From assembly GCA_040754495.1 (NCBI GenBank), contig JBFMCO010000064.1, positions 1 to 21,602 on the forward strand: a DNA stretch of 21,602 nucleotides, given 5' to 3'. Position numbers and translations under genes: made by a program. The notes under the pieces were generated by a model. The model worked only from the letters and a program-made list of their open reading frames with translations. It was not told the origin of the DNA and made no database searches. Source of the stretch: Candidatus Micrarchaeota archaeon. Its GTDB lineage: Archaea; Micrarchaeota; Micrarchaeia; Anstonellales; Bilamarchaeaceae. This document shows, in pieces, positions 2,063 through 4,044 of this stretch (within the stretch, counting starts at the first letter, position 1; every line of letters starts with the position of its first letter).

Positions 2063-2077
2063 CGAAAGGTTTATAAC
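2063..2077 (+). promoter_or_regulatory. Archaeal BRE+TATA promoter (CGAAAG-G-TTTATAAC)
   Basis: Canonical BRE/TATA spacing. The predicted TSS at ~2100 coincides with the 5' end of the structured element. Confidence 0.65.
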
Positions 2078-2100
2078 TTTTTCTTGTTATATATCTTATC

Positions 2101-2383
2101 CTGATGCCCTCGATTGGGGCATTTCGGTTGTCCTGAAAAGGATGCGACCGTAGCAGCCTCTGACAAGCAATCGGCCATAAATACGGTGGCTGGGCTATAC
2201 CCGCGACGTCCCGACATATGGGACGGAACGGGGACCAAAACTCACCGTATGGAACCTGTGGCTTGTTAAGCTCGTATTGGCGCGAAGGAGATCACCTTTA
2301 AAGCGGGCGTGGTTGGGTTAAGATCGAAACCCGTGTCCTGTTTAAGGAACTCCCTCACCGAGCCCAGAACCCTGGGGCATCAG
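2101..2383 (+). ncRNA. Unidentified ~285-nt structured RNA (free ncRNA or 5' leader)
   Basis: Terminal helix CTGATGCCC 2101-2109 / GGGCATCAG 2375-2383; GAAA-tetraloop hairpin 2125-2150; nested helices 2161-2168/2261-2268, 2181-2188/2243-2250 and 2207-2212/2220-2225; helix 2270-2274/2359-2363; hairpin 2315-2332. Folded by eye only. Confidence 0.55.
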
Positions 2384-2743: not shown

Positions 2744-3151
2744 ATGTCTTCGTTGTCCAGGATATCGGAAAATTACCTACGAGTTGTGTATGAGATTACC
2801 GAGAAAAAAGGCTATGCGCGGCCAAAGGACATAGCAACGACGCTCTGCGTCTCTTCTGCCAGCGTGACCGAGATGGTCCAGAAGCTCGCGAGGGGCGGGT
2901 ACGTGAACTACGAGAAGCGCGGTGCGATAACACTCACGGATGAGGGCAAGAAGAAGGCGTCTTCCATAAAAATGCGCTACCAGGTCTTCCTCAGGCTCTT
3001 CGAGATGGCCGGCGTCTCGCCCCAGACCGCGTACATGGACGCATGCTACATAGAGCACCACCTCAGCGAGGAGACGGTGTCGAAGCTCGTGGAGCTTGTC
3101 GGGCGCCTTGAGCGGGACGACTCGCTCCGGGGAGACCAGCCGCGGGTCTGA
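2744..3151 (+). CDS. DtxR/MntR-family metal-dependent repressor (two-domain, no FeoA/SH3 domain)
   Basis: SENYLRVVY, VSSASVTEMVQKL HTH, ITLTDEG and DACYIEHHLSEET dimerisation/metal motif. Confidence 0.92.
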   Translation: MSSLSRISENYLRVVYEITEKKGYARPKDIATTLCVSSASVTEMVQKLARGGYVNYEKRGAITLTDEGKKKASSIKMRYQVFLRLFEMAGVSPQTAYMDACYIEHHLSEETVSKLVELVGRLERDDSLRGDQPRV

Positions 3152-3234
3152 GTTCTGTATTTTAGGTTTTTTATTAGTTTCCTACTTGTTTTCGGTCACT
3201 ATATATATTCGTCTAATTCCCATGAACTCTGCTG

Positions 3235-4044
3235 ATGCTGGCAGAATTCATAGTCATGTTCCGGGAAAGCCTTGAGGTCGCCTTCGTGATAGGCATCATC
3301 CTGGCCTACCTGCACAAGACCAAAAACGAGGAATACGAGAAGCACGTCTGGCTGGGAGCCGCGGCCGGCATGGTGCTTTCGCTCGCCCTCGCAACCGCGT
3401 TCCAGTACGTGAAGGGCGGCTTCGAGGCGAACGAAGAGCTTTTCGAGGGCGCGACGCTCATCATAACGAGCGCGCTCGTGAGCTGGCTGATACTGTGGAT
3501 GGTGAAGCAGAAGGAGGTCGTGAAATCCCTCCAGGAGGACGTGCAGGTCAGGCTTGAGCGCGGCGAGGCGCTCGGCCTCTTCCTTCTCGCTCTCAGCGCG
3601 GTCCTGCGCGAGTCGGTCGAGGCCGTCCTGTTCATGTACGGCATCTATATCAACACGGGCGCCCTTTCGCTTCTTTCCGGCTTCTTCGGAGTCGCGGCCG
3701 CGGTCGTATTGGGCATCCTCATGTTCGAATACGCGGTGAAAGTGAATATCGGCTCGTTCTTCAGGGCGACGACCATCATCCTCACTCTGCTCGCCGCGGG
3801 CCTTTTCTCTCAGGGGCTCCACGAGCTTCAGGAGGCATCCATCCTCCCGGTGTGGGTGGAGCACGTCTATGACGTCAATCCCCCCCAGGCGCCTGACGGC
3901 AGCTACCCCCTGCTCCATGAGAAAGGTGCCATCGGCTCGCTGCTCAAGGGCCTTCTGGGCTATGACGGGAATCCGAGCGACCTGCAGGTGGCCGGATATG
4001 TCCTATACGTGGCGGCGGTTTACGTCGCATATAAAAAACGCTGA
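3235..4044 (+). CDS. FTR1-family iron permease
   Basis: Two RExxE motifs (FRESLE, LRESVE), ~7 TM helices and the C-terminal GSLLKGLLGYDGNPS signature. Confidence 0.92.
   Translation: MLAEFIVMFRESLEVAFVIGIILAYLHKTKNEEYEKHVWLGAAAGMVLSLALATAFQYVKGGFEANEELFEGATLIITSALVSWLILWMVKQKEVVKSLQEDVQVRLERGEALGLFLLALSAVLRESVEAVLFMYGIYINTGALSLLSGFFGVAAAVVLGILMFEYAVKVNIGSFFRATTIILTLLAAGLFSQGLHELQEASILPVWVEHVYDVNPPQAPDGSYPLLHEKGAIGSLLKGLLGYDGNPSDLQVAGYVLYVAAVYVAYKKR

Follow-up and report, generated by a model that had tools for sequence, protein, structure and literature searches.

The 21,602-nt contig JBFMCO010000064.1 of a Candidatus Micrarchaeota archaeon (GenBank assembly GCA_040754495.1; the whole stretch is called the window here) contains about 285 nt, just downstream of a promoter-like sequence, that hold no long open reading frame (ORF). 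What is this stretch for? An earlier note made from the sequence had proposed either a new archaeal noncoding RNA or a large cis-regulatory leader, and comparison with related genomes supports that proposal; both halves of it hold some truth. Positions 2101-2383 (+ strand) are the Micrarchaeota copy of a structured RNA family about 250-285 nt long, which is uncatalogued (absent from Rfam 15 and from the literature searched) and is DPANN-wide but patchy in distribution. The best explanation, to which we would give about an even chance, is that the RNA is functional in itself and that a gene beside it encodes a mini-protein partner. An archaeal promoter of its own would drive a transcript in which the RNA comes first and the gene of a 52-aa mini-protein second. 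The distribution of the family suggests that the RNA is the functional product, and the mini-protein, which appears to be tied to the P9-P10 module of the RNA described below, would most likely form a small RNA-protein particle with it.

Fold and conservation of the RNA

Sequence comparison gives a fold in which a terminal rod (P1-P2-P3) leads to a four-way junction whose branches are a GNRA-looped hairpin (P4) and two arms (P5-P8 and P9-P11). Three long-range helices (PK1, PK2, and PK3) tie these branches together. The elements in the window are as follows.

2101-2110, + strand: P1 5′ strand (CUGAUGCCCU), pairing with 2374-2383 in 10 bp that include U2110-G2374
2117-2120, + strand: P2 5′ strand GGGC, pairing with 2362-2365 in 4 bp; competes with PK1
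2121-2123, + strand: bulge AUU between P2 and P3, 3 nt long in all copies examined
2124-2128, + strand: P3 5′ strand UCGGU, pairing with 2357-2361; 98.8% of cells paired, nearly invariant
2130-2143, + strand: P4 hairpin (2130-2134/2139-2143) with a GAAA (GNRA) tetraloop at 2135-2138
2144-2283, + strand: 5′ arm of the junction with P5, P6, P7, and P8, from mutual information and pair counts
2144-2152/2277-2283, + strand: P5
2156-2162/2267-2271, + strand: P6
2164-2170/2258-2265, + strand: P7
2171-2174, + strand: PK3 5′ strand UCGG, pairing with UCGA at 2324-2327 in the P11 loop
2182-2188/2243-2249, + strand: P8
2190-2195, + strand: PK1 5′ strand CUGGGC in the P8 loop, pairing with GCCCAG at 2362-2367
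2253-2257, + strand: PK2 5′ strand AACCU, pairing with GGGUU at 2315-2319 of the GGGUUAAG motif
2284-2356, + strand: 3′ arm with P9, P10, and P11, containing the module GAGAUCACCUUUAAAG (2288-2303)
2284-2290/2350-2356, + strand: P9, which closes the 3′ domain
2296-2307/2338-2346, + strand: P10
2309-2311/2332-2334, + strand: P11
2357-2361, + strand: P3 3′ strand ACCGA, followed by GCCCAG at 2362-2367
2374-2383, + strand: P1 3′ strand (GGGGCAUCAG), pairing with 2101-2110

Covariation among relatives, which the earlier note had named as a test of its proposal, was found, and compensatory changes are abundant. RNAalifold places them in 28 of 52 pairs of an 11-sequence alignment. The ranking by mutual information with average product correction, run on the A6 alignment of 102 sequences, has almost only Watson-Crick pairs at its top, and PK2 and PK3 emerged from it, neither being present in the model used for aligning. 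When pairs of the full model are counted over 101 distinct sequences, 93.2% of cells are paired (81.4% in shuffles), two-sided changes occur in 58 of the 69 pairs, and none of 500 shuffles is as high; if the partners are slid relative to one another, pairing falls to 30-40%. The covariance model of the RNA core (R1, 208 positions, built from 11 relatives) spans P2 to CCAG, and P1, which lies outside it, was analyzed by script. At least 95% conservation is seen at 43 of the 208 positions, 11 of which are unpaired.

The individual helices differ in the kind of evidence that they offer. The sequence of P1 changes yet its pairing is kept in every relative inspected, and P4 shows the strongest covariation in the RNA (UA 64 / CG 32 / GC 4). 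PK2 is paired in 95% of cases, with a covarying pair that is UA 61 / CG 26 / UG 8 and a usual family partner of AGGUU, and PK3 in 80%, with a central pair that is AU 31 / GC 23 / GU 15; the two together join the P11 loop to both strands of the P7-P8 internal loop. PK1 (CUGGAC/GUCCAG) is invariant in 100 of 101 sequences, and the sole exception is the window itself, in which A>G at 2194 and U>C at 2363 have changed together and the pair is kept. The GCCCAG at 2362-2367 (+ strand) is common to P2 (through 2362-2365) and PK1 (through all six bases).

Much of the fold first drawn from the single sequence survives this comparison. The terminal helix at the predicted transcription start is real, although with 10 bp, including one G-U, in place of the 9 bp claimed. 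The helix 2161-68/2261-68 is P7 and 2181-88/2243-50 is P8, and 2207-12/2220-25 lies in a 40-nt insert (2199-2238) that is discussed below. The GAAA hairpin given as 2125-2150 holds in its upper part (2130-2134/2139-2143) but not in its lower part, where 2124-2128 belong to P3 and 2144-2152 to P5. A second domain closed by 2270-74/2359-63 finds no support; it is P9 that closes the 3′ domain. The long-range helices PK1, PK2, and PK3 had been overlooked in that first drawing.

The RNA lies in a 560-nt intergenic gap. On one side is the divergently oriented gene of an ArsP-type permease (723-1835, - strand) and on the other a gene of the DtxR family (2744-3151); within the gap an A+T-rich promoter region is followed by the 285-nt stretch. 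The promoter noted earlier is present at the coordinates claimed, as is a structured RNA on the + strand:

2062-2076, + strand: archaeal promoter of BRE/TATA type (transcription factor B recognition element and TATA box; CCGAAAGG + TTTATAA), recognized by sequence, about 25 nt 5′ of the P1 5′ strand

The predicted transcription start is at about 2099-2102, and relatives have comparable GAAA-N-TTAA/TTTATA boxes about 25-30 nt before P1. The expectation that the sequence would fold better than its shuffles holds for the + strand (z -3.3), but the - strand does equally well (z -4.2), so that the single-sequence folding energy is only moderately unusual and thermodynamics alone does not decide the strand. 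The + strand is chosen because of the promoter, the downstream ORF, and the many conserved G-U pairs.

Comparison with known RNA families

The Rfam search proposed in the earlier note returned no known family. With Rfam 15 there is no match in the whole window at gathering scores, and between 1900 and 2650 only chance-level matches appear at E up to 10. The same note had seen a resemblance to archaeal signal recognition particle (SRP) RNA in size and end pairing, which is there but is a resemblance only, and it had set SRP RNA, RNase P, and the group I introns aside, a judgment borne out by Rfam and by the genome's own SRP and RNase P RNAs. The source genome (80% complete, 72 contigs) carries a genuine SRP RNA on contig C66:5182-5433 (L001), and the archaeal SRP model (RF01857, clan CL00003) has no match in the window. 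That SRP RNA scores 72.4 bits against the Bacteria_large_SRP model and has the helix 8 loops GUCAGG-CCGGAAGG-AGCAGC; it is above threshold for the bacterial large SRP model and reaches 46.8 bits against the archaeal model, whose cut-off is 96.5. Archaeal RNase P RNA (RF00373) likewise has no match in the window and its own copy on contig C61 (71.4 bits, E 7e-19), and the genome's 5S rRNA (RF00001) is on contig C62 (77 bits). No group I intron or Rfam ribozyme matches at E up to 10, and the RNA is intergenic with a promoter of its own. No tRNA or transfer-messenger RNA (tmRNA) is detected in the window by ARAGORN. Hammerhead-like words of the form CUGANGA...GAAA occur in some relatives and are not conserved.

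A very divergent member of a known family (SRP RNA, RNase P RNA, 5S rRNA, group I intron, tmRNA, or a detached piece of rRNA) would have a similar size and paired ends, and the words GGUUAAG, AGCAGCC, and GAUCACCU are shared with rRNA. We nevertheless regard this as extremely improbable, given that Rfam is negative at E 10, that SRP, RNase P, and 5S RNAs lie elsewhere in the genome, that ARAGORN is negative, and that 23S rRNA in relatives is full length and without extended similarity to the RNA. The detached rRNA piece in particular is rejected because four relatives have a complete 23S rRNA (model positions 1-2987) and the shared words are no longer than 9 nt.

The four-way junction, the GNRA loop, the three tertiary helices, and the 43 highly conserved positions, 11 of them unpaired, directly before an ORF, also bring to mind a ribozyme in a leader, which, like glmS or the lariat-capping ribozyme, would cut or modify the transcript that contains it, or act on other RNAs. 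Such an activity overlaps with a functional RNA that has a protein partner and does not exclude it. As an explanation in its own right it seems quite unlikely, since no Rfam ribozyme family matches and the comparison defines no candidate cleavage site.

Distribution of the RNA family

Homologs were found in the DPANN and Micrarchaeota genomes in which the earlier note had suggested that they be sought. A BLAST-type search of 41 related genomes gave partial matches of 69-85% identity, and with the R1 model 23 of the 40 genomes searched in the genus each yielded a single full-length copy (E 1e-26 to 1e-59). At the level of the order, 47 of 151 genomes have a full-length copy and a few have two, and in a Pacearchaeota-type order 26 of 101 genomes carry the RNA. 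The first-look filter of the genome search may miss divergent copies. A strict three-block pattern, which fixes 23 bases outright and restricts no others, was also run on one genome per prokaryote species and returned at least 120 loci, whose record titles fall into five DPANN groups and mention Micrarchaeota, Nanoarchaeota, Woesearchaeota, Pacearchaeota, Nanoarchaeia, Aenigmatarchaeota, and Iainarchaeum (Iainarchaeota); here and below, figures on pattern-found copies refer to the matches listed.

Some of these records deserve separate mention. Several labeled Saccharibacteria or Methanosarcinales (L134, L102, L113, L116, and others) contain bona fide copies of the RNA with the mini-ORF, and probably these bins or labels are wrong. 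Tandem copies 19-130 nt apart occur, with the mini-ORF after the second (L086 3896-4328; L141 5361-5899), and several Nanoarchaeota bins have two or three dispersed copies.

The mini-protein gene and its relationship to the RNA

Two features follow P1 in the window.

2389-2394, + strand: Shine-Dalgarno-like GGUGAU, 3 nt before the start codon
2398-2556, + strand: gene of a 52-aa hyperbasic mini-protein with the family motif GRxPSxKxKxSKVxKL(I/K)(K/R)LAK (E 8.7e-12)

Boxes of the GGUGA type precede the ORF in relatives as well. An ORF with more than 30% Lys+Arg lies within 200 nt on the same strand in 104 of 122 pattern-found copies, and 82 of these 104 basic ORFs have the motif GRxPSxKxKxSKVxKLIKLAK. 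The mini-protein of the window has no Pfam family, and a Pfam search with 30 members of the mini-protein family gave no match at E up to 1. Among the 120 relatives of the mini-protein listed, no eL29 domain was found and the single Pfam domain is PF00924, in one of them; their source names are all "hypothetical protein" of DPANN archaea, and the neighbor of the mini-protein in a protein atlas is an unnamed archaeal cluster. The mini-protein profile finds only three chains in the PDB, all of them eukaryotic eL29 (E 1.3-9.4). A start of MAK..., then R-x-PS-x-K-G, then a basic helix looks like eL29 (PF01779), a likeness that may serve as a lead and does not amount to membership. In a second RNA subfamily with a diverged 3′ arm (L133, L168, L196, L121, L125, L140, and L185) the downstream mini-ORF is different; it contains Cys, is 50-72 aa long, and has the pattern MVC.KL..G.C.I....C..Y..KM....C... 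followed by a basic tail.

Between the end of P1 and the start codon there are usually about 10-25 nt (median near 10 nt). Of 88 loci, about 14 have the start codon inside the P1 3′ strand, and only 11 have five or more consecutive Ts between RNA and ORF. This short gap, the start codons within P1, and the rarity of T-runs indicate that RNA and ORF form one transcription unit in most lineages. In the window copy no T-run follows P1, and close relatives often have a T6 run there.

The two are not inseparable. Within the genus the RNA occurs in 23 genomes and the protein in 13, in 12 of which the protein gene directly follows the RNA; in the thirteenth (G016) an RNA fragment stands at a contig end and the protein match is on another contig. 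Eleven genomes have the RNA without the protein, and no complete locus in the genus has the protein without the RNA just upstream. Three of the RNA-only copies (G002, G001, and G014) end in T-runs, with no ORF on that strand and the next gene on the other strand, and RNA-only copies still show compensatory changes among themselves. The RNA is thus likely primary, since it exists without the protein and the protein gene always accompanies an RNA locus.

The part of the RNA that goes with the ORF lies in P9-P10. The module GAGAU(A/C)ACCU.UAAA is present in nearly all of the 71 ORF-bearing copies scored (three depart from it in part) and is replaced by unrelated sequence in 13 copies, all of them without the ORF, so that it could be either a docking site for the protein or a cis element for the ORF. 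It includes GAUCACCU, which we take to be identical to the 3′ end of 16S rRNA. In the window this GAUCACCU (within the module at 2288-2303) pairs in P10 with a Shine-Dalgarno-like AAGG (2341-2349), and the real box of the mini-ORF is the one at 2389-2394.

These arrangements bear on the view that the RNA is purely a cis-regulatory leader, existing only to control the mini-protein gene, either because the protein binds its own leader, like the proteins that act on bacterial ribosomal-protein operators, or because the Shine-Dalgarno box and start codon are masked by the internal GAUCACCU/AAGG module and P1. RNA and ORF do share a transcript, P1 containing the start codon or ending about 10 nt before it, the anti-Shine-Dalgarno-like P9-P10 module is kept in nearly every copy that has the ORF, and the P1 5′ strand of the window can pair instead, locally, with 2116-2123. 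On the other hand, the RNA is under structural selection in 11 genomes of the genus that have no such ORF, and in G002, G001, and G014 it ends in T-runs, with the next gene on the other strand. A core of about 200 nt with eleven helices, three tertiary helices, and conservation across phyla exceeds what known protein operators need, and the second subfamily places a different, Cys-containing mini-ORF behind the same core. A leader without any other function therefore appears unlikely to us.

Less likely again is an addiction-type or selfish module, in which the free polycationic mini-protein would be harmful, the upstream RNA would neutralize it, and the orphan RNAs would be leftover antidotes. 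The order of promoter, RNA, sometimes a T-run, and small ORF is what such a module would have, as are RNAs without protein and the lack of any complete locus with protein and no RNA upstream; the family is patchy within lineages, some genomes have several copies or tandem ones, the neighboring genes vary by locus, and different mini-proteins stand behind one core. However, RNA and protein are both conserved across phyla to a degree unusual for such modules, the RNA is without repeats, and the protein is too small for an enzyme. At most 8 of the 120 loci listed share a larger neighboring gene, none of these 120 has a mobile-element gene (integrase or transposase) beside the RNA, and a scan of 2.9 million viral contigs found no genuine copy. 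Viral origin was rejected with it, the single pattern match in the viral contigs being a chance one without a match to the model.

Possible maturation at a bulge-helix-bulge motif

If the RNA is a functional molecule with a protein partner, its terminal rod may indicate how it is released from the transcript. P1, the 4-bp P2, the AUU bulge, the A-G-N bulge on the opposite side, and P3 would together imitate the bulge-helix-bulge (BHB) substrate of the archaeal splicing endonuclease. The order is P1, GGRY, 3-nt bulge, P3 on the 5′ strand and P3, GUCC, A-G-N, P1 on the 3′ strand. This polarity matches that of pre-tRNA introns at 37/38, with the anticodon-intron pair at position 32. The central helix of a BHB motif has 4 bp, and P2 (GGRY/GUCC, here GGGC/GCCC) has 4 bp in the 112 copies with distinct flanks that were tallied (the sequence of the bulge was scored in 114); the four bases of its 5′ strand always end in R and then Y, and are compatible with GUCC/GCCC. 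In nearly all copies unpaired bases on the 3′ side outnumber those on the 5′ side by 2-3, and 0x3, 0x2, and 1x3 are the arrangements seen most often. Judged from this geometry only, a BHB maturation step is a real possibility, though one well short of an even chance.

The cuts would fall after the second base of each bulge, with the predicted 5′ cut between 2122 and 2123 and the predicted 3′ cut between 2367 and 2368, and would release 2123-2367 (U7 to G208 in model numbering) either as a linear RNA or circularized by RtcB; a short hairpin-led mRNA for the mini-protein would be left over. The positions just inside the predicted cuts (U7, A207, and G208) are conserved, those just outside (N6 and N209) are variable, and the predicted excised segment is exactly the conserved block. 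Excision would remove the competitor GGGC and free GCCCAG for the P8 loop (PK1). A single GUCC faces two identical GGAC strands, one in P2 and one in the P8 loop, and excision would account for this rivalry, with P2 used in the precursor and PK1 in the mature RNA. In a circular product, GUCCAG-U would become a loop of 7 nt capping P3 and would make a kissing contact with the P8 loop.

Genes for both enzymes are found in this genome. The splicing endonuclease is a 391-aa protein on contig C14 (L228 889-2061) with an N-terminal domain, a catalytic domain at 205-290, and about 100 residues beyond it, and RtcB is also present. A second, shorter ORF with an endonuclease domain is found on contig C31. 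In ultrasmall archaea a three-unit type of the endonuclease is reported to tolerate relaxed motifs (PMC7714728, PMC5829648), and the 391-aa protein resembles this three-unit or multi-unit type. A 46-nt BHB-flanked intron in the 5′ untranslated region of the Haloferax HVO_1309 mRNA is excised and circularized (PMC7714728). A circle-junction scan of metagenome contigs, which are probably DNA only and so uninformative here, gave one chance match in a G+C-rich coding region, and a search for spliced contigs resembling complementary DNA returned ordinary genomic ones. The fullest version of the model, a core that is cut by the tRNA-splicing endonuclease, closed by RtcB into a circle of about 200-245 nt, and joined with the mini-protein in a DPANN-specific and possibly catalytic particle, is a fainter possibility than the maturation step taken by itself.

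Several points weigh against a matured functional RNA with a protein partner. The 5′ and 3′ ends, the processing, and any circle are predictions. Only the inner half of the motif (P2, bulge, and P3) is canonical in the window, because a 6x8-nt loop parts P2 from P1, and across copies the geometry of the 3′ bulge varies, with the strict 0x3 form in only about 16%. Cleavage is not needed to account for P2 and the invariant A-G, which could belong to a plain rod or to the strand used by PK1, and the link between module and ORF could equally reflect a cis-acting anti-Shine-Dalgarno element. Invariance at the 23 positions fixed by the three-block pattern is partly built in, because loci were chosen by it; the Micrarchaeota set collected with the model is free of this bias and shows the same blocks with a few natural variants. 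The RNA is missing from about 16 of the 40 genomes of the genus, as a looser pattern confirms, and several of these 16 are 90-94% complete; about three quarters of the Pacearchaeota-type order show none. The RNA is patchy and therefore not essential.

Features particular to the window

The copy in the window has features of its own. The gap between P1 and P2 is the 6x8-nt internal loop already mentioned, where close relatives have a 1x3 loop, and the loop of P8 is enlarged.

2199-2238, + strand: 40-nt insert in the P8 loop, just after the PK1 strand, found in no other collected copy

The insert forms a hairpin of its own (CGUCCC...GGGACG with CGA/GAA flanks), with a 3x3 internal loop able to form tandem G-A pairs. 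A near-identical 29-mer occurs in the same genome about 20 nt from the 3′ end of the 23S rRNA (contig C41, L030 1500-1532) and in a relative in the 16S leader, about 130 nt upstream of 16S (L029 540-568). The insert may be a small reusable hairpin for protein binding or processing. Neither it nor the P9/P10 loop reads well as a kink-turn, both sequences being off what we take to be the consensus. Just downstream of the mini-protein gene lie genes for an FTR1-type iron permease and the DtxR-family repressor (2744-4044), which have no link to the RNA in relatives.

Significance and likeness to known systems

Only a small number of large RNAs combine many conserved bases with several pseudoknots, and those that are understood have central roles, for instance in translation, protein targeting, RNA processing, or gene control. 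A new RNA class found in several DPANN phyla and linked to a mini-protein of its own points to RNA-based biochemistry that is not yet known, in hosts whose genomes are tiny and most of which cannot so far be cultivated. The three tertiary helices and the competition between P2 and PK1 amount to a structural model for experiment, and if the circularized core is true, it would be a new class of BHB-matured functional RNA.

The closest comparison is with the BHB-flanked RNAs of archaea (pre-16S and pre-23S rRNA, tRNA introns, and HVO_1309; PMC7714728). They share with the present family the outer, 4-bp, and inner helices, a 3-nt 5′ bulge and, in the copies of strict 0x3 form, a 3-nt bulge on the opposite strand, each 3′ of a strand of the central helix, a location in an mRNA 5′ leader, and a genome that encodes the endonuclease and RtcB. 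They differ in that here a conserved RNA of about 200-245 nt that has its own tertiary fold is enclosed instead of a spacer or rRNA, the 3′ bulge is often relaxed, the window has the 6x8 loop, and cleavage is only predicted. Bacterial RNase P RNA with RnpA, and archaeal RNase P, likewise combine a large pseudoknotted RNA that appears primary with a small, very basic protein, but there is no similarity in sequence or model, and here the RNA is patchy and the protein of about 50 aa is encoded on the same transcript. The autoregulatory leaders of ribosomal protein operons (such as the pseudoknotted S4 and L20 operators) also place a structured RNA before the gene of a small basic protein of RNA-binding type, with a module that co-occurs with the gene; here, in contrast, the RNA persists without the gene, is much larger, and crosses phyla, and the protein is not a recognized ribosomal protein.

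Two further groups are alike in organization. The raiA motif, OLE, and ROOL RNAs (PMC10861870 for raiA) have the same wide, patchy spread, many conserved bases, pseudoknots, and a promoter of their own, whereas the present RNA is archaeal, DPANN-restricted, and on one transcript with a dedicated mini-protein gene, and has no homology to them. Type III toxin-antitoxin systems (ToxIN) have the same succession of promoter, RNA, optional terminator, and protein, with the protein tied to the RNA locus, but in this family a single complex fold takes the place of short repeats and a 50-aa polycation that of an endoribonuclease.

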